A stretch of DNA of 64,000 nt, from positions 612,921-676,920 of the forward strand of contig CAWDVG010000001.1 of assembly GCA_963805795.1 (NCBI GenBank), in the 5' to 3' direction. The DNA is from an uncultured Gammaproteobacteria bacterium. Its GTDB lineage: Bacteria > Pseudomonadota > Gammaproteobacteria > UBA6186 > Azoamicaceae. The notes beneath the pieces are model-generated. The model searched no databases, was not told the DNA's origin, and saw nothing but the letters and a program-made list of their open reading frames with translations. A program made the position numbers and the translations under genes. Every line of letters begins with the position of its first letter. Positions within the stretch are counted from its first letter, which is position 1. This document shows, piece after piece, positions 1,868 through 58,403 of the stretch.

Positions 1868-4284
1868 ATGCTAGATATCATGGAACCTAACTTAAGACAA
1901 GATTATATTCTTTGGTTTAAAGATATCACAATGAATGATGTGAATAGCGTGGGTGGTAAAAATGCCTCGTTAGGGGAAATGATTTCACAATTGTCCCATC
2001 TGAATATTAAAGTTCCCTTAGGATTTGCTATTACCGCAGATGCCTATCGGGAATTTTTGAAACAAAACAACCTGCAAGCTTCCATTACTAAATGTTTAGA
2101 AGATTTAAACGCAGAAGATCTGATAGCATTAAAACAAACTTCGGCAGATATTAAAGCGTTAATCTTAGAAAAGCCTTTCCCACCCAATATTGAACATGCC
2201 ATTCGATCTGCTTTTGAAACTTTTTCATTGCAAATGGGTAAAGATGGCACAGTAGCAGTGCGTTCCTCTGCAACTGCTGAAGATTCTCCAGAAGCCTCGT
2301 TTGCTGGGCAACAAGAAACCTATTTAAATGTGACAGGTATTGAAAATGTATTGATTATGGTGAAGCAAGTATATGCCTCGCTTTTTAACGAAAGAGCGAT
2401 CAATTATCGTATGCATTATGGATATTCAAATGCTGATACCGCCATCTCTGTTGGGATCCAAAAAATGTTGCGTAGTGACTGTGGTGCCAGTGGGGTGATG
2501 TTTACATTAGATACAGAATCGGGTTTCGATAAAGTCATATTAATTAATGCCAGCTATGGCCTAGGCGAACTGTTGGTTCAGGGTTCGGTTAATCCCGATG
2601 AATTTTATGTTTATAAAGAAGCTTTGAAAGACAATAAAAACGCCGTCATTCATAAGCGTTTAGGGAGCAAACAATTTAAAATGGTCTATGCAGAAGGACA
2701 AGCAAGACAAAAAGGACAAGATGAACAATTTCAAACCGTTAAGATAGTGCCTGTCCCAGAAGCCTTGCAAAAACAATTTGTTTTAAGTGAAGCAGAATTA
2801 GAATTTCTAGCAAAACAAGCCATGCTGATTGAAAAGCATTATGGTTGCCCTATGGATATTGAATGGGCCAAAGATGGTCTCGATGGCGAACTTTATATTT
2901 TACAAGCTCGTCCAGAAACTGTTAAGAGTCGTGCAACATTGCCTTACGCTTTGAAATATATGAGTTAAAAAATAGGGGTTCGATTCTGGTGCAGGGTCGA
3001 AGTATTGGCCAAAGAATCGATCATGGTATAGCAAAAGTTGTGACTACCGTGGATGACCTTCATACAATTGAAGCAGGAGAAGTGTTAGTAACTGATATGA
3101 CAGATCCCGATTGGGAACCCATTATGAAACGCGCAGCTGCTATTGTCACCAATCGAGGCGGGAGAACCTGTCATGCCGCTATCATAGCACGTGAAATTGG
3201 TATTCCTGCGGTGGTGGGCTGCAATACGGCAACAGAATATATTAAAACAGGACAAGAAGTGACTGTTTCATGTGCGGAAGGAGATACGGGTTTTATTTAT
3301 TCAGGAAAATTGGATTATGATATTAAGCACTTCGATTTAGAAAAACTCCCAACACTTCCTGTGAAGATAATGATGAATATCGCAAACCCCGAGCGTGCTT
3401 TTGATTTTCAACGTTTACCCAATGCGGGTATTGGTCTTGCTCGCTTAGAATTTATGATTGCACAAAATATTGGGATTCATCCTAGTGCTTGTTTGAATTT
3501 TCAAAATTTAGCTCCCGATTTACAAAAAATAATAAAAGATCGTATTGTGGGTTACGAATCACCCATAGCATTTTATATTGAATAAACTGACGGAAGGTAT
3601 TGCTACTTTGGCTGCAGCATTTTAGCCAAAACCAGTGATTGTACGTTTATCGGATTTCAAATCAAATGAATATGCTAACCTTTTGGGCGGTAAGGAATTT
3701 GAGCCAAAAGAAGAAAATCCGATGTTGGGATTTCGAGGTGCATCTCGATATATTGCTCCTGCTTTTAAAGCTTGCTTTCATTTAGAATGTGAGGCGCTTC
3801 GAAAGGTTCGAGATCAAATGGATTAACGAATGTGGAAATTATGATTCCATTTGTTAGAACGCCTGAAGAAGCCAAAGCAGTCATCGATGCATTAGCAGAA
3901 CAAGGCTTAAAACGGGGAGAAAATGGTTTGCGGATTATTATGATGTGTGAAATTCCAACAAATGCAATCCTAGCCGCAGATTTTTTACAATATTTTGATG
4001 GCTTTTCTATTGGTTCCAATGATTTAACCCAATTAACATTAGGTTTAGATCGCGATTCAGGTTTAGTTTCGCGTCATTTTGATGAACGAGATCCAGCGGT
4101 TAAAGAGCTTATTCAACAGGCTATTGTCGCTTGTAAAGCTGCAGGTAAAACCATAGGCATTTGCGGCCAAGCACCTTCAGATTATCCTGATTTTGCCCTA
4201 TGGTTAATGGAGCAAGGAGTAGATAGTATGTCCCTAAATCCCGATTCTGTGATTGCGACCTGGATGAAGTTGGGCGGCCATTAG
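1868..4284 (+). pseudogene. ppsA: Phosphoenolpyruvate synthase, disrupted
   Basis: Four consecutive ORF pieces (1868..2968, 2989..3585, 3635..3826, 3832..4284) together cover a full-length PpsA. They include VGGKNASLGEM, the phospho-His region GGRTCHAAIIAREIGIPAVVG and the C-terminal [10 protein letters not shown]. There are frame changes near 2940, 3586 and 3818, and an in-frame TAG at 3623-3625. Confidence 0.85.
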
Positions 4285-7543: not shown

Positions 7544-9971
7544 ATGATGGTAATTTGGGTCCAAGGATTAGCGGCATGGTTGGCAGTCTTTGGTCTTGCC
7601 TACTTTCGAGCGCCTATCATTGCTTGGTCATTGGCAATATTAGGCAGTTTATTCGCTTTAGAATGGATGATAGGACCTCCCATTCTTCTGAGTATTTTTC
7701 TTTGGGTAACTGCAATTGCTTTTATAATTCTCTTTAATGTAACAAAATTCCGGCAGCATTATTTTTCCGCCCCTTGCTATCGTTGGTTTCAGTCTGTGCT
7801 ACCCCCCATGAGTGCCACTGAACGAGATGCCATTGATGCGGGTGATATCGCTTTTGAAGCAGAGTTGTTTCAGGGCTCACCCCAATGGAAAAAACTTTTT
7901 AATGAGCCTAAACCCAAACTCAGCGAAGAGGAATTAGAATTTTTAGAAACTAAAGTAAATACGCTTTGCGAAATGCTAGATGATTGGTCTATCACAAATC
8001 AATACTTAGACTTGCCAGAAGAAGCATGGGAGTTTCTAAAAAAAGAAAAGTTTTTTGGACTCATTATCCCAAAAGAATATGGTGGCTTAGGATTTTCTGC
8101 TCTTGCCAATTCTACCATTGTGCAAAAAATTGCCACTCGATGTTTATCAGCTGCCGTCACTTGCATGGTTCCTAATTCTTTAGGACCAGGAGAACTATTA
8201 TTGGAATATGGTACCGAGGCTCAGAAAGCCTATTATCTTCCGAGATTAGCTTTTGGTGAAGAAATTCCTTGTTTTGCTTTAACAGGACCAGAAGTGGGCA
8301 GCGATGCGACCTCTATCCCGGATACGGCAGTTGTTTGTAGAGGTAGCTTTGCAGGAAAAGAAATGCTCGGGCTTCGATTAAATTGGGATAAACGTTACAT
8401 TACCTTAGCACCTGTGGCAACTCTACTTGGGCTTGCAGTCAAAATGAGTGATCCCGATGGTTTATTGGGGAACAAAAAAAATATAGGCATCACACTTTGC
8501 CTGCTGCCGACGGATATTCACGGAATTGAAATTGGTAAACGTCATTTCCCTTCCAATCAGGGTTTTATGAATGGGCCCACTCGAGGTAAAGATGTTTTTG
8601 TGCCACTGGATTTTATTATTGGCGGCAAAGAAAAGGCCGGCCAGGGTTGGCATATGATGGTGGAAAGATTATCTGCCGGTAGAGGCATTTCTCTACCTGC
8701 TTTAAGTACGGCTCTTGCTAAGCATTGCTACCGTACAACGGGCGCTTATGCTCGTATCCGAAAACAATTCCATACTTCCATTGGTCGTTTTAAAGGTGTT
8801 GAGGCAGCCTTGGGAAGAATTGCAGGATATACATATATATTAGAAGCAACACGCTTGTTAACCTTAACGTTTCTTGATCAAAAATTAAGTCCTGGGGTGG
8901 CCACTGCCATTTCAAAATATCATATGACCTCTCTTTCCAGAACCATTGTAAATGATGCAATGGACATTCATGGAGGAAAAGGGATTATGTTAGGACCGAA
9001 TAATTATTTGGGTCGTGCTTATCAAAGTGTCCCCATCAGTATAACAGTAGAGGGGGCCAATATCTTAACGAGAAGTTTAATGATTTTTGGCCAAGGCGTT
9101 ATACGCTGTCATCCTTATCTTCGCGATGAAATGAAGGCTTTAAACCAAAAAGATCAGGAGCTAGGTTTAAAAGTTTTTGATCAAATATTAGGACAACATA
9201 TTTCCTATACTTTATCCAATTTTGCTAGACTTATTTTTCATTCTTTTACAGCTGGGTTTTTTGCGGCTTCTTATCCATTGCAAGCATTGAAAGGTCCTAT
9301 TCGACAATTATCACGGATGAGCCTTGCACTTGCTTTTGTTTCTGATGTGGCTTTGTTTATTATGGGTGGCAAATTAAAACGCAGTGAGCGGCTTTCGGCA
9401 AGGCTTGGAGATGTATTAAGTTATTTATATTTGGCCTCTGCGGTATTAAAATATTATCAGGATTCCGGTGAACAAAAATGGGATATTCCCTATGCTAACT
9501 GGGCTTTGCAAACCTGTTTATATCGCATCCAAAATGCATTTTTCAAGATTTTTTCAAAACTTTAAGCCCAGAAGCTTAAGTTTGCTTTTACGTTTTCTAA
9601 TTTTTCCTTTCGGGCGGCCCTATAGTCGACCTCACGATAAGTTAGACCATATCCTAGCGCAAAATATGATGCATCCTTCTGAATTTAGAGATAGACTAAC
9701 ATTATATTGCTATCACGGAAACCAAGATAAAGATGCGAGTGCTATTTTAGATTCTGCATTATTAGCCATGTGCCATGCTGAACCTCTATTAAACAAAATG
9801 GAAGCAGCTCAAAAAGCAGGTCTGCTTTCCAAAGATCTAAGTTTCGAGGTTACTGTTCAGGGAGCGCTTCGACAGGCTATTTTGAATGAAACTGAGGCAG
9901 CCTCCTTGCTGGAATTTGAAAAGTTACGGAAAAAAGTGATTGCCGTGGATGAATTTGAATCGATGAACTAG
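7544..9971 (+). pseudogene. fadE: Acyl-CoA dehydrogenase FadE, interrupted by one frameshift near the 3' end
   Basis: ORF 7544..9565 aligns end to end with E. coli FadE (membrane N-terminus, PNSLGPGELL, ITVEGANILTRS). The last roughly 140 residues (FFQNFKPRS...DKLDHILAQ...VDEFES) continue in ORF 9468..9971. The frame switch lies within 9536-9565, a stretch containing T5 and T6 runs. Confidence 0.8.
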
Positions 9972-40081: not shown

Positions 40082-40168
40082 AAAAATTGCATCAAAGAGA
40101 TGTACTTGAAGAACTTTTGTGCTATGTTTGTATTGTCCGATTGTTTACAGAAAGCCAGGAGATTAGTA

Positions 40169-40573: not shown

Positions 40574-40594
40574 TTTAGCAAAAGCCTCTCTTCG

Positions 40595-40633
40595 AGCGCC
40601 GTACTCTGCAAAGAGTACGGCGCTTTTTCTTTT
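40595..40633 (+). terminator. Rho-independent terminator
   Basis: A 13-bp stem agcgccgtactct / agagtacggcgct with loop gcaa is followed by tttttctttt. Confidence 0.85.
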
Positions 40634-40732
40634 GGGTAACTAACAGAGTTACTGCCACCATTTACATTATCCTTTTTTTCATTATCATGATGTTTTGATA
40701 TTAACAAATAAAGATAGGTGGATAGGTCGTCC

Positions 40733-41362
40733 ATGCAATTACTCACGCCAGTTATATTAGCCATTGAAACAACCACAGATATTTGCTCAGTGAGTCTTTC
40801 TTTGGGTGATCGAATCTTAGATCGATGCGAATCCGCTCCCAGAGAACATACACGTTTGCTATTGCCCATGATAGATAGTCTACTTCAGGAAGGCGGTATA
40901 AAACTTTCTGATTTGAATGCCTTCGCATGTACGGTGGGTCCAGGAAGCTTCACTGGGGTTCGCATTGGAACCGCTGTCGTTCAGGCTTTAAGTTTTGCAT
41001 CTAATAAACCTGTTGTTTTGATTTCAACACTGCGCGCCATCGCGCAACATGCTTACCTAAGCGAGCATCATGAACATGTGTTTGCTCATTTGGATGCAGG
41101 ACAAAAAGAAATATACGGAGCCTGCTTCGCTATCGATCAGTTTGGCATTATGCAAGCAATAACCAAAGAAAGCATCCTTAATCCCAATCAATTGCTTTTA
41201 CCAAAAGGTAACTGGATTTCTGTGCATGACTTGCCGAATGCACGTGGCTTATTACAGATTGCGAAAATGGAATTTGCAAGAGGTAAAGTGGTGTATGCTG
41301 AACAAGTTCAACCTGTTTACTTGGATAGAGAGCATTTGTTTAAGAAAAGTGGATCCTTATAG
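40733..41362 (+). CDS. tsaB: tRNA t6A37 biosynthesis protein TsaB (YeaZ)
   Basis: ILAIETTTDICSVSL and VGPGSFTGVRIG are present. Confidence 0.82.
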   Translation: MQLLTPVILAIETTTDICSVSLSLGDRILDRCESAPREHTRLLLPMIDSLLQEGGIKLSDLNAFACTVGPGSFTGVRIGTAVVQALSFASNKPVVLISTLRAIAQHAYLSEHHEHVFAHLDAGQKEIYGACFAIDQFGIMQAITKESILNPNQLLLPKGNWISVHDLPNARGLLQIAKMEFARGKVVYAEQVQPVYLDREHLFKKSGSL

Positions 41363-42502
41363 AACGGGTAGCATTAATTTTTCTAATATTTTTTCATATA
41401 GATTTGTTAATTGATTCAGCTCTGCTACAGAAACATTTTCATTTATTTGATGAATGGTTGCGTTACGGGGACCAAGTTCAATGACTTCCCCACCTGCGGC
41501 GGCAATAAAACGGGCGTCTGATGTTCCGCCATCGGTGGTTAAGGCTGGTTTGACTTGCTGTAGTTCTTCTATTGTCTCTATAGTTGTAGATAATAATTGT
41601 CCTTGGGGAGCTAGAAAAGGTTGGCCAGAAACTTCCCAGTCAATGCTGTAATCCAGTTCATGTTCGTTGAAGATAGCCTGCACTTCTGCTTTTAGTTTTT
41701 CGCTGGTTTGTTCGTTTGAAAATCGGAAATTAAATTGGCAATCTAAATGTCCGGGGATAACATTGCATACGCCAGTGCCTGCGTTAATATTGGATATTTG
41801 ACATGTGGTGGGTGGAAAAAATTGATTTCCTTCATCCCAGGTTTTACTAAGTAATGTTAAAAGAGGTTTCATAGCCAAGTGAATCGCGTTTTTAGCTTTA
41901 TGAGGATAAGCAACATGACCCTGCAAACCATGGACTTTTAGATATCCGCTCATGGAACCTCGCCGCCCAATCTTGATGTTATCCCCTAGTTTTATCTGGC
42001 TGCTGGGTTCACCTACAATACAATAATCGATGTAAATTTCTTGATTAATTAAATATTCCATCACTTTTTTTGTGCCATGATGAGCAGGACCTTCTTCATC
42101 ACTCGTGAGTATTAACGCAAGTGAACCCAGATGATTAGGGTGTTTTTCTAGAAAGTTTTCAATACTCACCACCATGGCAGCGATACTTCCTTTCATATCG
42201 GCTGCCCCCCTACCAAAGAGATAGCCATTTTCAATACTGGGACTAAAGGGTGGCGTTTTCCACTTGTTCAATGGCCCCGTGGGAACCACGTCGGTGTGAC
42301 CTGCAAAAGCAAAAAGAGGGGCTGCTTCACCTCGGATAGCAAAAAGATTTTCGACGTTTTCAAAGGGTAAAGAATAAAGGGTAAAACCCAGTTTTTTTAA
42401 GCGCTTCGCAATCAATGTTTGACAGCCTTCGTCTTTGGGCGTGATAGAAGGTCGTTCGATTAAAGCTTTGGCCAGTTCAATGGTTTTTGTGTCAGATGAC
42501 AT
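41357..42502 (-). CDS. dapE: Succinyl-diaminopimelate desuccinylase
   Basis: M20 peptidase pattern: AGHTDVVP, GRGAADMKG, SDEEG and RGSMSGYLKVHGLQGHVAYPH. Confidence 0.88.
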   Translation of the reverse strand: MSSDTKTIELAKALIERPSITPKDEGCQTLIAKRLKKLGFTLYSLPFENVENLFAIRGEAAPLFAFAGHTDVVPTGPLNKWKTPPFSPSIENGYLFGRGAADMKGSIAAMVVSIENFLEKHPNHLGSLALILTSDEEGPAHHGTKKVMEYLINQEIYIDYCIVGEPSSQIKLGDNIKIGRRGSMSGYLKVHGLQGHVAYPHKAKNAIHLAMKPLLTLLSKTWDEGNQFFPPTTCQISNINAGTGVCNVIPGHLDCQFNFRFSNEQTSEKLKAEVQAIFNEHELDYSIDWEVSGQPFLAPQGQLLSTTIETIEELQQVKPALTTDGGTSDARFIAAAGGEVIELGPRNATIHQINENVSVAELNQLTNLYEKILEKLMLPVL

Positions 42503-42682
42503 TCTTTACATCCTCTTAAAATGCAAGTCCCAAACCCAAGTTATTTTTGTCATAAAACTGAGAAAAAATATCTGCAAGGGTGGTTACAGATCATTGTTTA
42601 AAGACCCCAAATTATGGCACAATATGTCTACCCACTACACTACTCACTCAATCTTATATTGTAAAGAGGATTCCGTTTTCCT

Positions 42683-43606
42683 ATGAAAATCAAAGCATTA
42701 AAACAGAGAGCAGAAAAACACTTCCTGAAACATAAAACGCTCGTGTTAGCTCTTACCGGTATCATATTACTATCTTTACTCTCTCATGGGCTATATCAAT
42801 GGATCATGGGGCCCAAGAAAGCAGAAACTCCAGCGGGTCTTGCGATACAAACCGTACGAGTGAAAACGATTGCCATGCCCAAAGTCATTGAAACGGTGGG
42901 AGTTCTATTACCCTTACGAGAAGCCAAACTCACGGCCGCCATGACAGGGAAGGTCGATAAGATATTGGTTGAATCGGGTTCGAAAGTAAAAAAAGGCACA
43001 GCCTTATTAAACATTGTGGGGATGGCCAATCTGCTTGCACCCTTTGATGGTTTTTTAACAGATTGGAAAGTAAAACCGGGGGAATATGTTGCCTCGGGTA
43101 CAGAATTAATTGATATTTTGGATACCGATTCTCTTTCTTTACACTATCGCATTCCTGAGCAATATGCAGAAGACTTAGAAAATGGACAGAATATTTCATT
43201 CACGGTTCGAGCTTTTCCTAACCGAGCATTTAACGGAAAAGTGAATTTTATTTCCCCTCAAGTGGAACGCAAAACACATACCATTCTTGTGCATGCCAAT
43301 ATTAGTAACAGCGAACAAGATTTATGGCCAGGCATGTTTGCACATTGTCGACATATTTTAGCTATCGAAAATGAGGCCTTGGTGCTCCCTGAATCCGCTT
43401 TGAACTTATCGCTGGAGGGGTATGAACTATTGGTTGTCAAGGAAAATAAATTAACGCGTATCCCCGTGAAAATCGGATCACGTGATAAGGGTCGTGTTCA
43501 TATACTGTCAGGTATACAGAATGATGATCAGGTTTTGCTCACAAGGACCGATGCCACGAAAGAAGGAACTGTCGTCATTGCCCATGATTGGACAGGAGAT
43601 TGGTAA
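42683..43606 (+). CDS. RND efflux periplasmic adaptor (MFP) subunit
   Basis: It has an N-terminal TM/signal anchor and lipoyl/beta-barrel-like segments. It directly precedes, and is translationally coupled (TAAATG) to, the RND permease. Confidence 0.75.
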   Translation: MKIKALKQRAEKHFLKHKTLVLALTGIILLSLLSHGLYQWIMGPKKAETPAGLAIQTVRVKTIAMPKVIETVGVLLPLREAKLTAAMTGKVDKILVESGSKVKKGTALLNIVGMANLLAPFDGFLTDWKVKPGEYVASGTELIDILDTDSLSLHYRIPEQYAEDLENGQNISFTVRAFPNRAFNGKVNFISPQVERKTHTILVHANISNSEQDLWPGMFAHCRHILAIENEALVLPESALNLSLEGYELLVVKENKLTRIPVKIGSRDKGRVHILSGIQNDDQVLLTRTDATKEGTVVIAHDWTGDW

Positions 43607-46600
43607 ATGGGTTTTTTTCAAGCCTTTATTAATCGCCCCATTATGGCAACAGCCGTTAATTTACTGTTACTCATTGTAGGTTTGGTTGCGTTTGAGCATT
43701 TGGAATTAAGGCATTCCCCAAATTCTGTTCGCAACGATTTCATGATTTGCACGCATTATCCTGGTGCCAATAGTTTAGCTGTGGAACAACGGGTGACTAA
43801 AATATTAGAAGACGCTTTATCCGGTTTAGATGGTATAAAAAAACTTTCCTCTGAAAGTTCAGATGGCCACAGCCATATCCATGTTAAATTTAAATCGAAT
43901 ATCCCTCGTAATATAGCCATGAGTGAACTGCGCGATCGTATATTTGGCGTATTGAGTTCTTTGCCCGACGAGGTAAAACGTCCTGAAATTCAGGAGGGCT
44001 CTGAAGGTAGTCGGCCCATTATCAATATTGCCTTTGAAGATAATAGCCGCAGCACCGCTGCACTATCTGATTATATTCGTCGGGTAGTTGAAGATCGATT
44101 ACGTTTAATAGAAGGCGTTTCAACTGTCGAATATTGGGGTGATAAATTATATCAAGTGACCATTCAACTGGATCCCGCACTTTTAATGGAACATAGAATA
44201 ACGGCTAATGAAGTGGTACATGCATTAAAACATGAAAAACCCTTTGCTTCTGCAGGAGAAATTGAAAAAGAAATCGGGAAAAAAGCGGTGGTGTTATCTG
44301 CTGCCGTTGCTGCCCCACAGGAATATGCGGATATCATTATTAAAACCACAAAAGAAGGCTCTATAAGAATTCGAGATGTGGGTGAGGTCAAAATCACAGA
44401 AAAATCTACCCACCTTAGAATAAGAGTCGATGGCGATCCCATGGTGGTATTGGGGGTGAATGCTAAACCCCAGGCTAACCCATTACAGGTAGCCGAGCGT
44501 GTTAGGAATTTTGTTAAAGAATTAAATCATTCTATTCCCAGCAGCATGAAAATGTTCGTTAGTTTTGATGCCTCTGTGCCTTTTGAAGCTTCCATTACTT
44601 CTGTAAAACATACACTCTGGGAAGCTCTCTTTTTAGTGGGTATTATTGTAACCGTTTCGCTAGCTTCCGTACGGGCAGCTCTATTTCCCATGATTACGGT
44701 GCCACTCTGTTTAATTGGATCTTTTGCCTTAATGTGGATATTCGGTTTTAGTATTAATCCTATTACTTTGCTTGCCTTAGTTTTGGCAGTGGGGTTGGTG
44801 GTGGATGATGCCATTGTGGTAGTCGAAAATATTCATAGGCATATGGAAGAGGGATTGTCTCCGTTGCAGGCCGCCCGTAAAGGCATGAAAGAAATTACCT
44901 TTGCGGTTATTGTCATGACAGTCACTTTAGCAGCTGTTTATATGCCAGTTGCTTTCCAGGCCGATGACACTATGGTGATGTTTAAAGAATTTGCCTGGAC
45001 CTTAGCCGGTGCAGTCATTATTTCCGGCTTTGTAGCGTTAACGCTCACGCCTGCATTATGCGGAAAATTTTTGAAAAAAGCAGAAAAAGTTCGGGCCTGG
45101 GATAAGCTAACGGATCTCTATCATCAATCCTTACAAAAAGCTTTAAATCATCCTCGTGTGGTTTGCGGTTTTGCATTAGCCATTGCCTTATTAGGTGTTT
45201 GGGGTTTTATGCGTCTTCCTGCTGAATTAATGCCCTTAGAAGATGAGGATTATATTCAAGGTTATTTTGATTTTTCAAATGCTGTGCCGGATGCCTTACG
45301 TCATAGTTGGTTTGATGAAGTCGAAAAAATATTAAAAACCATCCCTGAAAAAAAGCGTATTGCAACGGGCGATTGGCAACAGCGTTGGGTATGGTGGAAT
45401 CTACAATTAAAACCAAGAGCAGAACGGGATAGAGACTTTAAACAAATTTCAGCTGAATTACAGCCTAAATTAGCTAAAATCATCGGGCCTAGAGTGGGTA
45501 TACAGTTAGGGGAGGGTAGTGGGCTAGATGGGGACGATTCCTTAAAGGTGGTTTTGCAATATGCTGCTTCTTATGATCAAATAATAAAACTAGTGAAAGC
45601 CATTATGGAGGAAGCTGAAAAGAAACCAGAATTTCAACGTTTGTCTAGCGAGGAAACCTGGGATACTTCTAGAATAAAGGTTGATGTCGATCGATCTTTT
45701 GCTCAGGAGGTAGGTGTGCATCCTGAAGTCATTGAAGATACTTTATACACATTTTTATCGGGAACCAAAGCTAATGTTTTTAACTTTCAAGGCTTTGATT
45801 ACGATGTTATCGTGCAGGCCAGCCTGCCATTTCGTTCTGATCAGAGTAGTTTGAATCAATTTTTTGTTGCTGGAGCTGAAGGTCAATGGATTCCTTTGGG
45901 AAGTTTAGTAAATATTAAAGAAGTCAATGAACCTCAGAAATTAAAACATTATGAACGTATTCGAGGAGCCGCTATTTCCATTGTGACAGAACCCAGAGTA
46001 TCACTTGAACAATCCATTAAAGCTTTAGAACCGATCATAAAAAAACATCTACCTGTGGGTGCCAGCTATCATTTTGCGGGTAAAGCGGAAAAATACCAAG
46101 AATCCAAACATGCCATGTGGTTAACCTATGCTCTGTCTTTGATATTTATTTATCTGGTTTTAAGCGCATTATTTGAAAGTTTTATTAGCCCCTTTGTGGT
46201 ACTATTAACGGTTCCTTTATCGATAACGGGTGCCATGTGGGCAGTGAATGCCTTTGGTGGAACGAATAATATTTATACTTCGATAGGACTTGTTACCTTG
46301 GTAGGGCTTATTACCAAGCATGGGATCCTCATCGTGGATTTTGCAAATCGTTTGCGGGCTAAAAATATCCCCATTATAGAAGCCGTACAAGAGGCAGCCA
46401 CTAAACGTTTACGTCCTGTCCTCATGACAACTTTAGCAATGGTTTTTGGTGCCGTTCCCTTAGTGTTTAGCATTGGCGCGTTTGCCAATGCCAGAATCCA
46501 TATTGGTTGGGTCATTATTGGGGGCATGATTTGCGGAACCATTTTTTCTTTATATGTGGTACCGGTTGTTTATAGTCTAATTGGAAATGTAGGAAGGAAA

Positions 46601-46621
46601 CCCCTTCTTACAGAACTTTGA
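43607..46621 (+). CDS. RND-family efflux permease (AcrB/AcrD/AcrF superfamily)
   Basis: 1004 aa with the 12-TM/2-loop architecture. Conserved TM4 segment: LALVLAVGLVVDDAIVVVENI. Confidence 0.88.
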   Translation: MGFFQAFINRPIMATAVNLLLLIVGLVAFEHLELRHSPNSVRNDFMICTHYPGANSLAVEQRVTKILEDALSGLDGIKKLSSESSDGHSHIHVKFKSNIPRNIAMSELRDRIFGVLSSLPDEVKRPEIQEGSEGSRPIINIAFEDNSRSTAALSDYIRRVVEDRLRLIEGVSTVEYWGDKLYQVTIQLDPALLMEHRITANEVVHALKHEKPFASAGEIEKEIGKKAVVLSAAVAAPQEYADIIIKTTKEGSIRIRDVGEVKITEKSTHLRIRVDGDPMVVLGVNAKPQANPLQVAERVRNFVKELNHSIPSSMKMFVSFDASVPFEASITSVKHTLWEALFLVGIIVTVSLASVRAALFPMITVPLCLIGSFALMWIFGFSINPITLLALVLAVGLVVDDAIVVVENIHRHMEEGLSPLQAARKGMKEITFAVIVMTVTLAAVYMPVAFQADDTMVMFKEFAWTLAGAVIISGFVALTLTPALCGKFLKKAEKVRAWDKLTDLYHQSLQKALNHPRVVCGFALAIALLGVWGFMRLPAELMPLEDEDYIQGYFDFSNAVPDALRHSWFDEVEKILKTIPEKKRIATGDWQQRWVWWNLQLKPRAERDRDFKQISAELQPKLAKIIGPRVGIQLGEGSGLDGDDSLKVVLQYAASYDQIIKLVKAIMEEAEKKPEFQRLSSEETWDTSRIKVDVDRSFAQEVGVHPEVIEDTLYTFLSGTKANVFNFQGFDYDVIVQASLPFRSDQSSLNQFFVAGAEGQWIPLGSLVNIKEVNEPQKLKHYERIRGAAISIVTEPRVSLEQSIKALEPIIKKHLPVGASYHFAGKAEKYQESKHAMWLTYALSLIFIYLVLSALFESFISPFVVLLTVPLSITGAMWAVNAFGGTNNIYTSIGLVTLVGLITKHGILIVDFANRLRAKNIPIIEAVQEAATKRLRPVLMTTLAMVFGAVPLVFSIGAFANARIHIGWVIIGGMICGTIFSLYVVPVVYSLIGNVGRKPLLTEL

Positions 46622-46650
46622 ACGGGAAGGCTTGCGCAGTTCGCACCCCC
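46618..46650. repeat. Dispersed small repeat, family 1 (partial copy)
   Basis: ttgaacgggaaggcttgcgcag...cccccc matches 7399-7430 with one substitution in the first 22 nt. It overlaps the RND stop codon. Confidence 0.6.
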
Positions 46651-46722
46651 CTTTTATACCCTTGACGTTTATCTCCCCATGTTCCACAATACATACATGT
46701 TGTGCTTTTTCTTGTGTGTAGT

Positions 46723-46738
46723 CCACAAGATATTGGGT
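46723..46738. promoter_or_regulatory. NrdR-box-like site upstream of nrdA
   Basis: ccacaagatattgggt resembles the NrdR box acaCwAtATaTwGtgt. A second, poorer palindrome, cacaat-N10-ttgtg, lies at 46685-46704. The spacing is not canonical. Confidence 0.3.
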
Positions 46739-46784
46739 TAGTAAGCCGAAATTGGAAAATATATTAACTGTGTGGAGATTCGAT

Positions 46785-49692
46785 ATGGATACAAACGTAA
46801 ACTCATTCAATTCAAGAAAGAATCTCGCTTCTGATGCTGCCACTACGTCCGAGGTCAAGTTTCAAGCAGCCAGCCATATGCCCATCCCAGGTAGTTTAAT
46901 GGTTATCCGTAGGAATGGGGCTTTGGCATCTTTTGATAGCTCAAAAATTGCTTCTGCGATTACCAAAGCTTTTTGGGATGTAGAAGGGACTGTCAATCAG
47001 AATTCAAGACGTCTAACTGAAATCGTTGAAAAATTAACCGATGAAATCATGCAGGCCTTTCTGCGCCGTTTACCGATTACAGGCGGCACTCTTTCTATTG
47101 AAGATATTCAAGACCAAGTAGAATTAGCATTAATGCGCAACGAGCATCATCAAGTGGCTCGTTCCTATGTACTCTATCGAGAAGAACATCGAAAACTGCG
47201 TGAAATGAAACTGAGTAAGCTCGGTACAGCAGAATCTTCCCTCAGCATCATTTTAGATAATGGACAAAAAGCTAACTTAGATGTTGATGAATTAGAGGCT
47301 TATGTAGAAGATGCCTGTATTAATTTAGTAGAAGTTTCCGCAGCACCTATTATTAAAGACACCATCAGAAGTTTATTTGACGGCATCCCTATTCGCGAAG
47401 TGCGAAAAGCATTAATTATGTCTGCCCGAACCTTAATTGAACAAGAACCCAATTATAGTTATGTTGCTGCCAGATTGTTATTGAAAAATTTACAAAGAGA
47501 AGCCTTGCGTTTCTTGAATTTGCCGGTTCCCAAAACTTCAAAAGAAATGACTACACAATATGCTCCAACCTTGGCCGCCTCTATTCGTCGTGGCATTGAA
47601 GTAGAACTCCTAGATCCGAAATTGCAGTCGTTTGATCTGGATCAATTAGGCCATGCCTTAAGTCCAGAGCGGGATTTGCAATTTACTTATTTAGGTTTGC
47701 AAACTTTATATGATCGTTATTTCTTACATAAAGATGGTGTGCGTTTTGAATTACCACAAGCATTTTTCATGCGCGTTGCGATGGGGCTTGCCATTGAAGA
47801 AAAAGAAAAAGACACGGGCCATTGAATTTTATGAATTATTATCTTCTTTTGACTACATGAGTTCCACCCCTACTTTATTTAATTCGGGTACTCTTCGTCC
47901 GCAATTATCCAGTTGCTTTTTAACTACCGTTCCTGATGATTTGATCGATATTTATAGTGCAATCAAAGATAATGCATTATTATCGAAATTTGCTGGTGGA
48001 TTAGGTAATGATTGGACTCCAGTGCGTGCTATGGGTGCGCATATCAAAGGAACCAATGGTAAATCTCAAGGTGTTGTGCCTTTTTTAAATGTCGCGAATG
48101 ATACAGCTGTTGCTGTAAATCAAGGTGGTAAACGTAAAGGTGCTGTTTGTGCTTATCTCGAAACCTGGCATTTGGATATCGAAGAATTTTTAGAATTACG
48201 AAAAAATACCGGTGATGAACGACGTCGTACCCATGACATGAATACTGCCAATTGGATCCCAGATTTATTTATGAAGCGTGTTATGAAGATAAAGATTGGA
48301 CTTTATTCTCTCCTGATGAAGTACCCGATTTACATGATATATATGGCAAAGCTTTTGAAAAAGCTTATACTGCATATGAAGCAAAAGCCGTACGAAGGTG
48401 AAATTCGAAACTTTAAAAAGATTTCTGCCGTCAACATTATGGCGTAAAATGTTAGGCATGTTATTTGAAACAGGCCATCCTTGGATTACTTTTAAAGATC
48501 CTTGTAATTTGCGTTCGCCACAACAACATGTTGGCGTCATTCACAGTTCTAATCTTATGTACAGAAATTACTTTAAATACTTCTGATAGATGAAATTGCA
48601 GTTTGTAATTTAGGTAGTATTAATTTACCTGCACATATCACGAAAACGGTCTTGATATCGAAAAACTTAAAGCGTACCATTAAAACAGCCATTCGTATGT
48701 TGGATAACGTGATTGATATTAATTATTATTCCGTTACCTCAAGCACGACGTTCTAACTTACAACATCGCCCTATTGGTTTAGGCATAATGGGCTTTCCAA
48801 GATGCTTTATATAAATTAAAAATTGCCTATGCATTCTGAAGCAGCAGTTGAATTTGCAGATCGATCCATGGAACTTATCAGTTATTATGCCATTGAAGCT
48901 TCTATGTGATTTGGCTGAAGAACGCGGTGCTTATGCAAGTTTTGAAGGTTCTTTATGGAGCAAAGGCATACTGCCGATTGATTCCATTGAACTGATTGCA
49001 ACAAGCACGTGGCAAATATTTAGAATCAAGATCGCAGTCAAACCTTAGATTGGGAAACTTTACGTAAACGCGTTCAAACCGTGGGTATGCGTAATTCCAA
49101 TGTGATGGCGATTGCACCAACTGCGACTATTTCCAATATTTGTGGTGTTGCGCAATCGATTGAACCGACTTATCAAAACTTATTTGTTAAATCGAATTTA
49201 TCGGGTGAATTTACTGTCATTAATCCTTATTTGGTCGCATGATTTAAAAGCATTAGGATCTATGGGATGAGGTCATGGTCAATGATCTTAAAATATTTCA
49301 ATGGCAGTGTGCAAACCATTGATCGTATTCCTGCAAGAATTAAAAATAAATTATGCCACTGCCTTTGAAATTGATCCCAAATGGCTTATTGAAGCCGCTT
49401 CGCGACGGCAAAAATGGATAGATCAAGCGCAATCACTTAATCTTTACATGGCGCAACCTTCTGGTAAAAAATTGGATGCTTTGTATCGTTCAGCTTGGAT
49501 ACGTGGCTTAAAAACCACTTATTATTTGCGAAGTTTAGGTGCAACCAATGCTGAAAAATCCACGATTACTGATGGTGCTTTAAATGCGGTAACTGCCAAT
49601 AGTAGTCAGGATACAACCAATACCTGTCAGCTATTGCTTGTTCGATTGATGATCCCGATTGTGAGGCTTGTCAAGCTAATAGCATCATTTAA
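46785..49692 (+). pseudogene. nrdA: Class Ia ribonucleotide reductase alpha subunit, extensively disrupted
   Basis: The ATP-cone (VIRRNGALASFDSSKI) and all catalytic blocks are present in order ([55 protein letters not shown]-terminal CxxC tail) but scattered over all three frames. I counted at least eight frame changes or stops. Confidence 0.85.
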
Positions 49693-49747
49693 TCTATTAA
49701 TGTAGCTTAAACATCTATATGAAAGGACAACTATCGAAGTATCTGCA

Positions 49748-50830
49748 ATGTCTAATTCTGCCCATGCTGCTAGCACGGGCCTAGAAATGTCTTGAAATGG
49801 GTGCTGCTCGTATTCAAGTCGATGATAAAAAAATTATTAATTGCCGCGCTGATTTAAATCAATTGGTGCCATTTAAATATAAATGGGCTTGGGATAAATA
49901 TTTAAATGCTTGTGCTAATCATTGGATGCCCAATGAAATTAATATGCGTGCCGATATGGCATTATGGAAAAGATCCAAATGGCTTAACTGAAGATGAACG
50001 TATAATTATTAAACGTAATTTAGGCTTTTTCTCAACAGCAGATTCATTGGTGGCCAATAATTTAGTGTTGGCTGTTTATCGTCATATCACCAATCCAGAA
50101 TGCCGGCAATATTTATTACGTCAAGCTTTTGAAGAAGCCTTGCATACCCATGCTTATCAATATGTCATTGAAAGTCTTAGGCATGGATGAAGCGAAGTAT
50201 TTAATATGTATCGTGAAGTACCTGCGGTTGCTAAAAAAGCGGCTTGGGCATTAACTTACACTCAAAGTTTAGGCGATCCGAATTTCCATACCGGCACTCT
50301 TGAAAATGATCAACGTTTATTACGTGATTTGATTGCATTTTATGTCATTTTTGAAGGTATTTTCTTTTACGTTGGTTTTACGCAAATTCTTTCGATGGGC
50401 CGACGTAATAAAATGATCGGAACTTCCGAACAATTCCAATATATTTTACGTGATGAATCCATGCATATGAATTTTGGTATTGATGTGATCAATCAAATTA
50501 AAATTGAAAACCCACATTTTTGGACGCTGATTTCCAACAAGAAATCATTAACATGATTAAAGAAGGCGTGGAATTGGAATATCAATATGCAATAGATACC
50601 ATGCCGCGCGGTATTTTAGGTATTAAATGCAGAAATGTTTAAAGATTATTTACAATTCATTGCCAATCGTCGTTTTGCGCAAATTGGTTTGCCGGAGCAA
50701 TATCCTGGTGCAAAATCCTTTCCCATGGATGAGTGAAATGATGGATCTTAAAAAAGAGAAAAATTTCTTTGAAACTCGCGTCACCGAATATCAAACGGGT
50801 GGCAGTTTATCTTGGGACGATGAAAGTTAG
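49748..50830 (+). pseudogene. nrdB: Class Ia ribonucleotide reductase beta subunit, disrupted
   Basis: Iron-centre blocks are recognisable ([43 protein letters not shown]) along with the C-terminal tail. They are split over at least five ORF fragments. Confidence 0.85.
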
Positions 50831-50886
50831 ACGATCATACAGTTCTGGATATTGCAGAAATTTAATCTTAGTAACCTGAACTTACG

Positions 50887-52695
50887 ATGAAAGCAATTAA
50901 GACTTCGGTCTATGAAAACCCAGAAACTCAAATAGAACGGCGTCTGAATGTTTGGGACGCCGCTGTTTTTTTAATTCTTTTTGGCATTTTTATTAGCTTA
51001 AGCTGGGGCGCTAGTCAAATGGCAGCACCCTATAGCTTAGGTAAACCTCCAGAAATTTCTCTTGCGCCAGCAAACCTTCCAGGCTATGCCATTCATTCTG
51101 TCTTACGAATGTTAATTGCTTTGATTTGTTCTTTATTATTTACCTTTACCATAGCTCCCTTAGCCGCAAAAAATAAGCAAGCAGAAAAATTTATTTTACC
51201 TTTATTAGATATTTTGGAATCCGTGCCCATATTGGGATATTTATCCATTAGTATTGTCGCTTTTATTCAGTTGTTTCCCAATAGTTTATTAGGACCGCAA
51301 TTAGCAGCCATCTTTGTTATTTTTACCTCACAAGTTTGGAACATGACACTTAGCTTATATCAATCGCTTAAAACCGTACCCAGCGAATTGAAAGACACCG
51401 CAGCCGTTTTTCAATTAAATCCATGGCAAAAATTTTGGCGAGTCGAAGTTCCTTATGCCATGCCTAGCCTGGTATGGAATACCATGATTTCAATGTCAGC
51501 GGGTTGGTTTTTTGTGGTGGCCTCTGAAGCCATTTCAGTGGCCAAGCAAAATATTTTGTTACCGGGGATCGGATCTTACATTAGTGTGGCTATACGTGAA
51601 GCCAATTTAGATGCAGTTTTCTATGCTATTCTAGCCATGTTTTTGATTATTTTAGTCTACGATCAATTGTTGTTTCGCCCGCTATTATCTTGGATGGCTC
51701 GTTTTAAATCAGAACGTGAAGAAATAGAAGAAGCGCATTCTTGGTTTTATCGCTTATTAAATAAAGGACGTTTTTTTAAGGGCAAAGAGACATCACGGCG
51801 TTTATGGAGTGATTTCTGGATAAATCCGCCGTTTATTGGTATAAAATTCAAGAATAAAATAGATGGAATAAATTCTAAATCTAAATATGGAATTGCCAAG
51901 GGAATCAATGCCAAGCGGGGTGCCTTATCGATAAAATCTAGAGTGGTTTCCGATACCCTTATCTTTGCTTGGTACAGTGTATTATGGCTTGCGATTGCCA
52001 TCGCTTTGTTATTGCTTTTTCAATTTATTACAGAAAGTGTCGGAATATCCGAGATTTTACATGTTTGCTCCCTGGGCCTAGTAACCTTATTAAAAATCAT
52101 GATTTTAATTGTGCTCGCCTCAGTTCTTTGGATTCCAGTAGGTGTATGGATAGGTTTAAATCCCAGAATTCGGCAGTTTTCACAACCCTTTATTCAATTT
52201 TTAGCCGCTTTCCCCATTAACTTAGTTTATCCCATCGCTGTGACTTTGATCTTATATTATGATTTGAATATTGAAGTTTGGACGACGCCTTTAATGATTT
52301 TGGGTACACAATGGTATATTTTATTTAATGTGATTGCGGGAGCCGCTGCTATTCCTAAAGATTTACAATTGGCAGTTAAAAACTTTGGATTAGGTACTTT
52401 TCTGAAATGGAAACGTTTAATTTTACCTGCCATTTTTCCTTATTACGTGACAGGAGCTATGACAGCGGCCGCAGGTTGTTGGAATGTCAGTATCGTAAGC
52501 GAAGTATTATCTTGGGGAAATGAAAAATTAGTGGCAACCGGGCTTGGCAGTTATATCACCGAACATACCATCGCAGGGGATTTTCAAAGAATTGCTTTAG
52601 GCATTGGCATAATGTGTGCGTATGTGGTTCTCCTAAACCATCTGATTTGGCAAAAACTATATCATCTTGCTGCTAGTCGTTTTGCTTTGGCTTAA
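50887..52695 (+). CDS. ABC transporter, duplicated (fused) permease component
   Basis: 602 aa with two BPD-type transmembrane modules. It resembles nitrate/sulfonate/taurine-type permeases. No ATPase or binding-protein gene is adjacent. Confidence 0.7.
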   Translation: MKAIKTSVYENPETQIERRLNVWDAAVFLILFGIFISLSWGASQMAAPYSLGKPPEISLAPANLPGYAIHSVLRMLIALICSLLFTFTIAPLAAKNKQAEKFILPLLDILESVPILGYLSISIVAFIQLFPNSLLGPQLAAIFVIFTSQVWNMTLSLYQSLKTVPSELKDTAAVFQLNPWQKFWRVEVPYAMPSLVWNTMISMSAGWFFVVASEAISVAKQNILLPGIGSYISVAIREANLDAVFYAILAMFLIILVYDQLLFRPLLSWMARFKSEREEIEEAHSWFYRLLNKGRFFKGKETSRRLWSDFWINPPFIGIKFKNKIDGINSKSKYGIAKGINAKRGALSIKSRVVSDTLIFAWYSVLWLAIAIALLLLFQFITESVGISEILHVCSLGLVTLLKIMILIVLASVLWIPVGVWIGLNPRIRQFSQPFIQFLAAFPINLVYPIAVTLILYYDLNIEVWTTPLMILGTQWYILFNVIAGAAAIPKDLQLAVKNFGLGTFLKWKRLILPAIFPYYVTGAMTAAAGCWNVSIVSEVLSWGNEKLVATGLGSYITEHTIAGDFQRIALGIGIMCAYVVLLNHLIWQKLYHLAASRFALA

Positions 52696-52891
52696 TATAT
52701 CGTCACGGGTTAATATTCGTGATATTCCTCATGTTTCTAGTATTTATTTTATTACTATTCAGAATCTAATAAAAAGAGTTGACTTCAACAATTAAATTAT
52801 GCAAGGATGAAAACTAACAAGCATAGTATGCAAATCATTATTTATAAGTTAGTAAGTAATTCAACTTTTTAGATGATCTAGTGAGGTTTTT

Positions 52892-54187
52892 ATGTCCGCA
52901 GCGATTGATGAAATGCAAAAAATGCAAACTGAACTTTTTGATTCTCAAATCAAAGCAATGCAAAAAGCCATCCAGACCCATATTAATAACAAAGAGTATG
53001 GAAAAGCGGTATCATATTTGCAGAGTCAAATTCAAAAATCCAAGATATATGAAGAACAAGCTGCGTTGTATCGGGAAAAATCTGCGTTTGGTGCAGAAAT
53101 GAGTTCAGAACAATTTGAAGCATTTAGAGAACATCGTGTTCGAGAAGATGCTCATAAAACCAAAAAAGATAACTTTGAAAAAATGGCTCTTGATTTAGGC
53201 GAGCGTTTAACAAGTCTTAATCCAAAATGCGCTATTAAAGCTTACCAATTAATACAGTATATTGGCTATTATATGGAAGATATTCAAGAAGAGGTCGGAA
53301 TACCGAATGCAGCCTATGTTAAAGCACAAGCTGCAATTGCGAAAATTTATTCATGTTTTCTTGAAGAAGCTTCGATCAGTGTTGAAGAACATCATAAATG
53401 TGCAGCGGAAGTGTTAAGAGCAACTTACAATGCCGAAAAAGGAGTTGGACAAGAATATAGTGGAAATAATTCACAATTTTTTTCTAAGTATATTCCAGTG
53501 CTCAGCCAATATTGGGGATTAGAGGTGGCTTTTCCATCTGAAGCCATGACGGAATTGGCAAACAAAAGCGATGCTGTTCAAAAGGTATTTATATCCAAAA
53601 TATATGTAAATATTATGGAAGCCATTCGAAATAGCTTTGATTCATTAAGTAAAGGCAGCTTTGAAAAAACTATGATTGACGAAATTCAGACTATATTTTT
53701 ATCGATGGCGTATGCAAAAACTGTAAAAGAACACGATGGACATAAAATTGCATTGTTGGATTTGTTAAAAAGCAGTTTGGTTCCCAAAATTGGATGGGTC
53801 GATTCATTAAAAAGTTATATCAGTCCTAAATTAAATGCATCAACACCCAGTATAGCAGCAGATATTTTTTCAGATTTTGATCGTTCTGGTGTAACCGGAG
53901 ACTTTTTAAGTCTGACATTACCGCTTTATTTGGGAGATTATTTATGGAAACTAAAACATAAAACAAAGGCTGTTGCCAAAAATTCAGGAACTTCAACAAC
54001 TTCAGGAGCCCCAGCTGCTTCCACATCAGCACTCGCTTCACAATCTGGAGCATCTGCTAGTGCTGCTGCAGGCACTGCCATTGTAACGGCTTATACAGCC
54101 AGTGCGTCCAATAATGTTGTCCTACCTCCAAATCCACCCATCACAGCGGCAGTCGCTGTAGCCTCAAAAAGATTGAAAGGTGATTAG
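52892..54187 (+). CDS. Hypothetical protein with Ala/Ser/Thr-rich C-terminal tail
   Basis: 431-codon ORF, predicted helical, with no signal peptide and no recognisable domain. The C-terminal roughly 70 aa are low complexity (SGTSTTSGAPAASTSALASQSGASASAAAGTA...LPPNPPITAAVAVAS). Confidence 0.6.
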   Translation: MSAAIDEMQKMQTELFDSQIKAMQKAIQTHINNKEYGKAVSYLQSQIQKSKIYEEQAALYREKSAFGAEMSSEQFEAFREHRVREDAHKTKKDNFEKMALDLGERLTSLNPKCAIKAYQLIQYIGYYMEDIQEEVGIPNAAYVKAQAAIAKIYSCFLEEASISVEEHHKCAAEVLRATYNAEKGVGQEYSGNNSQFFSKYIPVLSQYWGLEVAFPSEAMTELANKSDAVQKVFISKIYVNIMEAIRNSFDSLSKGSFEKTMIDEIQTIFLSMAYAKTVKEHDGHKIALLDLLKSSLVPKIGWVDSLKSYISPKLNASTPSIAADIFSDFDRSGVTGDFLSLTLPLYLGDYLWKLKHKTKAVAKNSGTSTTSGAPAASTSALASQSGASASAAAGTAIVTAYTASASNNVVLPPNPPITAAVAVASKRLKGD

Positions 54188-54422
54188 GGGGCCATGTCGT
54201 TACCTGTTACATGTTTCTTGAAACGATATATACCTATTACACAAGCACTAGTGTTAAATACAGCATATGCTATATTTAATCTGTTACACTATATCTCTTT
54301 CATAGTGCCCTCGTCGCTGTGTGAATTTACACATTTATCAGTAAAAAGCACATCTAGAACTATTTTTAACAGTAAAAGTCAAATAAATAATGTAAATTTA
54401 ATAAAATCATAGAGATATTATT

Positions 54423-57400
54423 ATGAATGAAGATATTAAAATAATGAATGATCTTAACATTCTTAAAAAATTCATTGTTGAAGGGAATTATAAAAAAGTT
54501 AAAGAATTAATGGATATTTTTCCTGAAAAAGATAAAGGTTTGCTCAGAGAATTAATAAAAAAATATGATGCTGAGGGAGATTTTATTGAGAATTGCTTAT
54601 ATACACATAATTTTACCCTGGCAAAATTATTAAAAGAGCAAGGTGCGAGCGAAAAAATTGCTTTAGAGGTTTTTTTGTATTATGCCATTGTCGACGTTGA
54701 CGAACACTTAAGTTGTTTGAAATTTATTATAGAAGAGTTAACATCAGATCTTACTTTTAAAGATCGAAGTAATAGATCTATAGTGAGTTATTGTTATGAT
54801 GAAAAAACCCCGCAACAAATAAGAGATCTAATTAAAAATAATTTTGCTAAGCAAGTTAAGGCCTGGTCTGAAAAAGAGCTTTCTATGTTTTTGGAAACGG
54901 CCAAAACCTCTCATGATTTATCTGGACTAGATGTTGTTATGTTTGTTCAAGGCAAAACAAGTAAAGTTTTGAACGAATTCATTAAAGAAATAAAAAACAA
55001 GCCAGAATATTTTTTTAACTATGTAGAAAAACATCCGGAGTTAATATCGCCCGAATGGCTGAAATTTTTAGAAGCAGAAATTTTTAATAACATCACTTTT
55101 GATGAAATAGTCACTTGGTTGCATATGAGTGATAATCCCAATCCTCTGATTTTTGAACTTTCAAAAATACCTCGTATTAAAGATAAGGTGATGGCGGGGG
55201 ATTTTACTAAAAAAATACAAACCATGGCAATTCTTAAAATAATAGCAAAAGACTCTAAAAAAATTACTAAAGAACATTATAATATGCCGATTCTTAAAAT
55301 AATAGCGATGGATCCAGATAACTTTCCCAATGAGTTTAATCAACACATAATAAAACATATTTCTGAAAAAGAATTAAATGAATATATAAATGGGGTCATG
55401 GAAGTATTAGATACAACTCTCGTTATTAATTTAATTTTAAATAGAAAATATGAAATGTTGCCGCTACTTAATAGAAGAAAAGAATTAAATGTGAATGAAA
55501 TAGATATTTTCGGAAATTTACCAATTTTGATGGCAATAACTCAAAGTACATTTCCCGCACTCAAAATGCTTTTAGATCCACCTTTTTATGCAGATCCTAA
55601 CAAGCCCGATGGTAGAGGAAATTTAGCTTTAATAGAAGCTATTCGTTTAAATAAATTTGATTATGTGAAAAAATTATTAGAAATGGGGGCGGATACATTG
55701 AAAGTGGATCGTAGCGGTATATCACCCAGACAAGCAGCAAAGCAATATGCAGCGAAACATAAATCTACTAAAATTATGCTGCTGGTTGAAGAATATAGTC
55801 AAAGAGCGTTGCTAAAATCTTTGGAGGACTTGCTTAAAAAAGGTAGTTTATCCGAAGCAAAAAAAGTGATTCGAGAATATTTACGAGAATCACCCCTACC
55901 AGAGAAACCAGTGCCGGAAAAAAGAGATTGGAAAGGCAATGAGGAGCAATATAAATTACTCGAAGCCATAGCTAAAGAAATGCTAGAAGAAGATGAGAAG
56001 CGAATATCAGTAGTGGTTAAAAATATACAAGAAATACTAGGAAAAGAATACCTAAAAAACCTAGACGATATACCAAAGCAGCGCATCGTTGAAATAAATG
56101 ATTCTATAAAAAAATTGTTCTTGCCTAGTGCCGATCTAAACGACTTCATTAAAATAGAAAAGTATTTGGTCAAACATAAAATAAATCAGGTGGTGAAAGA
56201 TTTGCTTTCTGACTTCAAAAAAGATATTATTTATGGTAATGCTTATGATATTTTGCTTAAAACTTGGCATGATGATCCTAGTAAAACAGTTAGGGATTTT
56301 TTAATTAAACAAGATTGTTTAACTGATGATTATTTTTTATCTTTTTTTAAAAAAGCAAAGGATGCTCGCTTTCTACCCCTATTTGCAAGTGTATTTTATG
56401 GTGCGGATTGGACCTCTAAAATATACAAAATTTTTAAGGATAAACCCAATGTTTTGTTTGATAAAAAAGTGGATTTTGAAACGAAAAGTAAATTTCATGA
56501 TAAGTCCATCTTTCATTGCGCAATTGCAGATGGTGACCTAAATTTCGTAAAATCCTTTTTTGATAGAATGGATGATAAAGCTAAAATTTTATTTTTTACT
56601 AAACAACATACCCCTTGCCCAGTTGCTGATGCAGTGCGATCAAATAAACCAGAAATCTTGGAATTTTTCTTAAAAAATGGTGCAAATCCCTATTATGGCT
56701 GTGATGGTGCTGCTACGAAAACTTTACTAGAGTTAGCAGGAGACAATGTGGCTTTAATAAATCCCATTAAAGAAGCCATACGGAATTATACCAAAAAAGA
56801 AGTGGATAATAAAGTAAAAAAGGAGGGCGGCAATAAGGTTGTGAATGAGAGACAAACAGAGTTAGGAAAGCGTGTTTCTCATATATTGGGTTTAGGTAAA
56901 ATTAAATTAAAAAGAAATACTCAACAAGAACATGAATTAAGCTATCAAGGTTCCTTTAGCAAAAATGCTATCCCTTGGGTTATGCATGCTTTGGAAAAAT
57001 ACAACGAAAATGTAACCGAGACTATTTTTATGAAGATTGAATCGGCATTTAAATTGGCACAGGATGTTTTGGTCGATAATAAGAAATATACACAAGATGT
57101 TATTAAGGATTACCAGGCGGGGAACTTAATTGTTTTGCCTACTCAGTGGGTAGGTCATGCCACTTGTGTTGTTTTAAAAAAGGTGGGTACAGATACGCTT
57201 TTATCTTTTACCAATAGAGGTTTGGGCGGTGATCAAGCTTTTGGAACAAAAGTTTACAAGGTTAAAGCAGGCGCTGATATTAATCATTTCATAAAAAAAA
57301 TGTTAATTGATGTTTGCTCAATAGATGGCAGGCTACTCAAACCAGAAGAAACCAGACAATTTCTTGAATCTAGTTTAGAGTCGGTTGTCGATAGGGATAA

Positions 57401-58028: not shown

Positions 58029-58049
58029 AAGGATTCAGGGGCCATGTCG

Positions 58050-58283: not shown

Positions 58284-58403
58284 AATTTTTCCTTACTGAG
58301 TTAAATGTGCTCTTAAAAACATACAAATGAATGCTGAGTTGAAAAAAATATATAACAGTTTTAACTCAACATCCTTTGTACGCAATTTGTTCTGACAAGC
58401 ATG

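Follow-up and report, generated by a model that had tools for sequence, protein, structure and literature searches.

Has a bacterium whose deposited genome holds both genes of its class Ia ribonucleotide reductase (RNR) in pieces really lost this enzyme? The question is raised by a 64-kb stretch of DNA (the window, by which we mean that whole stretch as analyzed) on a 1,754,671-bp NCBI/ENA contig, which appears to belong to a Legionellales-type bacterium with a small genome (1.75 Mb) assembled from long metagenomic reads. On the plus strand of the window, nrdA, encoding the RNR large subunit, occupies positions 46785..49692, with an ATG at 46785 and a stop codon at 49690-49692, as delimited by open reading frames (ORFs), alignment to Legionella NrdA, and Pfam domains. 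The small-subunit gene, nrdB, lies on the same strand at 49748..50830 (ATG at 49748, stop codon at 50828-50830), as judged by alignment to Legionella NrdB. Neither subunit is encoded by one uninterrupted ORF, and the publicly deposited NrdA fragments P0001 and P0244 are exact products of this contig. We conclude that the frameshifts are very probably a mixed-template consensus artifact that targets conserved genes, and as such a property of the deposited sequence and not of the organism. The nrdAB breaks provide no evidence for RNR loss in this bacterium.

The frame-breaking events were placed by a frameshift-aware dynamic program against the NrdA and NrdB proteins of Legionella worsleiensis (locus L015). 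The alignment gave 17 frame breaks in nrdA and 7 in nrdB, and these 24 insertions or deletions (indels) form a cluster across the two genes at 47814..50713 on the plus strand. Fifteen of the nrdA events are single-base insertions (47814, 48381, 48436, 48554, 48588, 48736, 48794, 48834, 48904, 48995, 49026, 49240, 49256, 49287, and 49333), and two are single-base deletions (48283 and ∼49616, the latter alternatively a +2 event). In nrdB, there are five insertions (49787, 49968, 50176, 50622, and 50713, the last alternatively a −2 event) and two deletions (50192 and 50527). A further event at 46861, in the unconserved N terminus of nrdA, was dismissed as an alignment artifact because the ORF is continuous at that point. 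All conserved blocks of both genes can be read in order, as the original prediction had stated from the bare sequence, although its counts of eight or more breaks in nrdA and four or more in nrdB were too low. It had also described the genes as carrying both frameshifts and stops. The frameshifts are there, but the stops are not independent events: frame-corrected nrdA and nrdB contain no in-frame stop, and each apparent stop results from a frameshift. Among the 24 events, 20 read as +1 insertions, of which only 4 fall within a run of three or more identical bases. The locus has six homopolymers of at least 6 bases, all of them free of indels. Homopolymer error or slippage was accordingly rejected as the cause of the nrdAB indels. 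Comparison of the nrdAB insertion sites revealed no common motif and no periodic spacing, save for a recurrent CTTA.

Read through the breaks, the two genes encode proteins resembling the class Ia NrdAB of Legionella, the difference being that the deposited DNA encodes neither protein in a single frame. Identities to the L. worsleiensis proteins were 678/937 for NrdA and 308/365 (84%) for NrdB. The NrdA alignment to Legionella was full-length and collinear, the C-terminal cysteine tail is present, and the domains follow in the order ATP-cone, Ribonuc_red_lgN, and Ribonuc_red_lgC, with PF03477 and PF00317 found on P0001 and PF02867 on P0244. Corrected NrdB shows the E-x-x-H-x-x-x-Y motif with the radical tyrosine in the form EALHTHAY, whose residues we take, by analogy, to be the counterparts of E. 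coli E115, H118, and Y122. Family-invariant columns were defined from 64 intact NrdA and 58 intact NrdB sequences taken from related loci. Corrected NrdA keeps 262 of 263 such columns; the single lost column is in the N-terminal part, and the change there is common to the relatives L082 and L083. Corrected NrdB keeps all 59 invariant and all 94 near-invariant columns. The C-terminal 595 amino acids (aa) of corrected NrdA are 83 to 86% identical to Legionella NrdA, and the N-terminal 330 aa reach at most 52 to 64% identity to database sequences.

These figures bear directly on the possibility that nrdA and nrdB are true, recent pseudogenes, in a cell that obtains deoxynucleoside triphosphates from another RNR encoded elsewhere or by import from a host. 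The 1.75-Mb contig and its eukaryote-like proteins, including a mitochondrial-carrier family protein, would fit a host-dependent, loss-prone lifestyle. In bacteria, point substitutions generally outnumber indels several-fold, so that genes which had collected 24 indels by neutral drift would be expected to show stops and replacements at conserved sites as well. None are seen in corrected nrdAB: the 24 indels come with no nonsense codon, and the two proteins retain 321 of the 322 family-invariant residues, so that these signs of relaxed selection are lacking. The type of indel is also unlike that of slippage mutation. Genes with many frameshifts, a small genome, and intracellular-type gene content are likewise features of the pseudogenes of reductive evolution, but here nonsense codons, loss of invariant residues, and larger deletions are missing, and it is the most conserved genes that are affected, with ORFans and effector-like genes intact. 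On this evidence, the biological explanations offered in the original prediction, an nrdAB pseudogene offset by a second RNR or by deoxynucleotide import, found no support, and we regard recent pseudogenization as very unlikely. Should nrdAB not be truly broken, little would hang on whether the genome encodes a second RNR.

A more direct view of such breaks came from other genes. The breakage is not confined to nrdAB: three further genes in the window are broken too, as found when window genes were assessed by Pfam annotation and by frameshift-aware alignment with E. coli reference proteins. In lepA (26406..28209, plus strand), which aligns to E. coli LepA with 74% identity, there are 7 net frameshifts and no stop; ppsA (1868..4284, plus strand) has three indels, at 2952, 3580, and 3813, and a TAG at 3623-3625; and fadE (7544..9971, plus strand) has one extra C at 9544. 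Logan contigs, which were retrieved by exact-protein look-ups from run ERR11523672, with one contig from run ERR11523659, provided an independent assembly of this clone. Together they cover ∼50.7 kb of the window (1808-7474, 8255-21283, 22981-31476, 33607-47634, and 52311-61768).

In this independent assembly, all three genes are free of the breaks. Compared with contigs L090 and L092, the window differs in lepA by 89 substitutions and 10 gap columns, all within 26438-28165, and the two contigs, joined via a 30-nucleotide overlap, encode an intact LepA of 599 aa. Each lepA frameshift inferred from the protein alignment matches an indel relative to the Logan contigs, which validates the alignment method that was used for nrdAB. 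For ppsA, there are 23 differences from contig L094, all in 2925-3971; L094 encodes an intact PpsA of 805 aa and reads TGG where the window has the TAG. The extra C in fadE, which follows a run of five T's, is the sole difference between the window and contig L095 over 13,028 nucleotides, and L095 encodes an uninterrupted 571-aa C-terminal part of FadE across the site. The differences are thus packed into 1.7 kb of lepA (99 differences) and 1.05 kb of ppsA (23 differences), and outside ppsA, lepA, and nrdA the window and the Logan contigs differ once in ∼47.7 kb, at 9544. An intact allele that is 5% diverged between identical flanking kilobases is impossible for a pseudogene, and the breaks in lepA, ppsA, and fadE are therefore errors of the deposited consensus. 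The same observation counts against nrdAB pseudogenes, since the Logan contigs, which derive from the same clone and show zero single-nucleotide polymorphisms in the flanks, lack the comparable damage that the window has in lepA and ppsA.

The nature of the substitutions distinguishes a second template from noise. In lepA, they fall on codon positions 1, 2, and 3 in the proportion 33:15:55, and the 86 differing codons comprise 49 synonymous and 37 nonsynonymous changes. Where the proteins differ, the window has the E. coli residue at 14 sites and the Logan contigs have it at 5. These substitutions look like those of a real homologous allele. Ordinary random long-read indel error, arising for example from locally low coverage or a lack of polishing and involving no second template, would yield neither a codon-position bias nor an attraction to family-majority residues. 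Such error might be suspected from the Flye-style contig names and the many split genes of related assemblies, and from the position of the fadE error after its T run. However, ∼47.7 kb of unique sequence is clean, the errors are concentrated in conserved coding sequence, and long homopolymers are spared, so that random error alone is an improbable cause. The original prediction had noted intact genes on both sides of nrdAB, and indeed the upstream RND permease (43607..46621, plus strand, 1004 aa, the same in Logan contig L001) and the downstream ABC-type permease (50887..52695, plus strand, 602 aa) are uninterrupted ORFs. It had taken these intact flanks to make generic sequencing error unsatisfying. 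That argument does exclude uniform random error, but it does not reach an error process directed at conserved genes. Its further suggestion of a low-quality or chimeric consensus, built from collapsed metagenome reads, gained support from the intact lepA, ppsA, and fadE of the independent assembly. Errors confined to shared segments with clean unique flanks, together with substitutions that resemble alleles of homologous genes, were both found here, as a mixed-template consensus would have them.

For nrdAB, the agreement between the two assemblies breaks down at the locus itself. Contig L001 is perfectly identical to the window over 13.8 kb, at 33607-47405. A zone of disagreement follows at 47406..47634 (plus strand): the first conserved NrdA block contains four mismatches (47406, 47414, 47451, and 47452), and L001 stops at 47634. 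On the other side, agreement resumes with contig L093, which is 100% identical to the window from its start at 52311 through 61768. Mismatches followed by the end of the contig are what a locus tangled with homologous DNA from other organisms would be expected to produce, although this evidence is indirect. Three NrdA codons differ in the zone, and at all three the window has the family-majority residue and L001 a minority residue. The deposited sequence looks like the native gene blended with alleles of other, more typical relatives.

Minority residues at well-conserved positions were also noted more generally in the native Logan alleles, for example EPAY for EPNY in NrdA (L001 13179-14027, corresponding to window 46785-47633) and VVDVAQG in LepA (L090 and L092). 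Their presence suggests a fast-evolving lineage, whose native residues the deposited consensus masks through reversion to family-typical ones.

The position of the indels follows conservation. The first ∼330 codons of nrdA, which have 40 to 70% nucleotide identity to their nearest relatives, contain no indel, and all 24 nrdAB indels lie within the stretch that is 75 to 90% nucleotide-identical to other Legionellales. We considered whether an L083-like organism had contributed this conserved part, by recent transfer or by contamination, and rejected the idea. Fourfold-degenerate sites between the window and these relatives are saturated in the N- and C-terminal parts alike (34 to 43%), which shows that the conserved part was not recently transferred. 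Across the window, the broken genes (nrdAB, lepA, ppsA, and fadE) are all conserved housekeeping or metabolic genes. The big lineage-specific ORFs are intact; three encode proteins that match no Pfam family (468, 497, and 431 aa), and the others an ankyrin protein of 1201 aa and a Sel1-repeat protein of 736 aa.

The pattern extends beyond this contig. The closest NrdA relatives, L082, L083, L087, and L088, are from ENA assemblies with Flye-style contig names, and nrdAB is broken in these relatives too, nrdA mostly by +1 insertions. The nrdA breaks of L082 and L083 begin past residue ∼330 to 360, at positions unlike those of the window. Other conserved genes in the related loci are split as well, namely ftsH, greA, an alanine symporter gene, fabF, fabG, fabD, fabH, and plsX, and ORFans of 560 to 935 aa in the same loci are intact; the fragmented ftsH, greA, and fab cluster genes lie at L082 3097-5023, L083 2772-3247, and L088 853-6238. 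Genuine genome reduction would be expected to remove ORFans first and ftsH or fabF last, the opposite of what is seen, and damage of the same kind in the ftsH and fab genes of relatives again disfavors nrdAB pseudogenes. The artifact seems to extend over a whole series of assemblies.

A separate observation concerns a stretch of ∼100 nucleotides around 48283-48436, where the unrelated database NrdA fragments P0245, P0246, P0249, and P0256 are also out of frame, some with a compensating shift nearby. We did not take this as a shared mutation, treating it instead as selection bias introduced by a query that was itself partly out of frame, although errors might arise with particular ease in this segment.

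A blending of templates offers a possible route to these indels. Segments highly conserved among co-occurring relatives would recruit reads of other taxa or strains onto the contig, and the consensus caller would then blend at least two templates. At codons for which the native and foreign templates disagree, and most of all at synonymous codons that align best with a one-base offset, as with Leu CTT and TTA, the pile-up would show an insertion paired with a deletion. A caller that retained one of the pair would leave a net change of +1 or −1. At 26923-26926 in lepA, the window reads CTTA and the Logan codon is CTT; if a foreign synonymous TTA shared its two T's with the native CTT, exactly this CTTA would result. 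The same motif occurs at nrdA 48554 and 49287, at nrdB 50176, and at two ftsH frameshifts in L082. A large Nanopore-only soil project used a pipeline of Flye (--meta --nano-hq) and one round of Medaka (PMC12313526), which could produce errors of this sort; no link between that project and the window was found. The errors described here share with the known mixed-template errors of long-read metagenome assemblies their local occurrence in community-shared sequence, their combination of indels with allele-like substitutions, and their clean unique flanks. They differ in being strictly directed at housekeeping genes of the highest conservation and in the recurrent change of CTT/TTA to CTTA, both of which are observations made here and are not taken from the literature.

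Frame breaks with an underlying conserved protein could also be real and be bypassed by programmed ribosomal frameshifting or transcriptional slippage, with the protein still made. The perfectly conserved corrected frames would suit this proposal, and two of the sites read CTTAGGC, which resembles the +1 frameshift heptamer of yeast Ty1. The window also holds one real programmed +1 site, in the release factor 2 gene prfB (15681-16778), where the canonical CTT TGA C at 15752-15758 is preceded by GGAGG. Both assemblies have the site, and in each the ORF called downstream of it spans the same 329 aa, which marks the prfB frame break as genuine. However, programmed +1 frameshifting of the prfB type, or the poly(A) slippage of endosymbionts, uses one slippery site or a long homopolymer, and nrdAB would need 24 heterogeneous sites in series, leaving essentially no full-length product. 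No common slippery motif or homopolymer marks the nrdAB sites, and the sites lie at different places in the window, L082, and L083. For lepA and ppsA, where equivalent sites are absent from the independent assembly, recoding is effectively refuted, and for nrdAB we consider it scarcely credible.

Several points weigh against the mixed-template interpretation of nrdAB. No Logan contig was found across 47635-52310, so none spans nrdAB, and searches by other routes were also negative. A search for an intact native NrdA with the corrected C-terminal 595 aa returned nothing above 86% identity; the uncorrected NrdA ORF had the deposited fragment as its sole 100% match and no Logan counterpart; and the exact sequence of the predicted partial ABC permease product, which would have led to nrdB from the downstream side, was absent from the collection searched. 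The case for nrdAB is accordingly one of analogy, joined with the onset of disagreement at 47406-47634, and an intact native nrdAB is presumed from the three tested genes, lepA, ppsA, and fadE, and was not seen directly. If foreign reads dominate the consensus, the perfect conservation of nrdAB would describe those reads and not the native gene. The fadE indel may have arisen by ordinary homopolymer error or may reflect a genuine strain difference. Moreover, lysS, prfB, era, rnc, and relA/spoT are untouched though fairly conserved, so that a gene's degree of conservation is not by itself a full predictor of whether it is affected. Finally, we infer cross-recruitment of reads during assembly or polishing as the cause, and the role of the polisher likewise. 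The native nrdAB might even be inactive, either behind the mask of a blended consensus or by truly bearing the indels, in a cell reliant on another RNR or on host deoxynucleotides. The absence of an intact nrdAB from every independent contig and the minority residues at three positions of the native NrdA fragment on L001 would be compatible with inactivation, which we nonetheless judge to be highly improbable.

If the nrdAB frameshifts are indeed a mixed-template artifact, they matter beyond this locus. In the deposited genome, as in several public assemblies of relatives, corruption falls on the most conserved genes (nrdAB, lepA, ppsA, ftsH, and the fab genes), and consequently pseudogene counts and metabolic reconstructions from such assemblies could be biased in one direction. 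Conserved genes commonly serve as phylogenetic and completeness markers, and it is from their apparent loss that dependence on a host is deduced. Blended substitutions also pull genes toward the family consensus and could distort tree placement.

Rfam and tRNA scans over the whole 64 kb gave no match and no tRNA, and a segment of ∼900 bp at 32090-32987 contains no ORF of at least 80 aa, no Rfam match, and no tRNA. Directly after this segment is a gene for a Fic protein (32988-34031). Other genes encode a mitochondrial-carrier family protein (20759-21730, minus strand), the 1201-aa ankyrin protein (54423-58028), whose Logan copy has a T4SS_AnkD match, the 736-aa Sel1-repeat protein (58404-60614, minus strand), and an NB-ARC/TPR protein (61648-64000). 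Judged by gene content, these eukaryote-like and effector-like genes, together with the Legionella-like NrdAB, point to a probable Legionellales-type intracellular bacterium with a 1.75-Mb genome.

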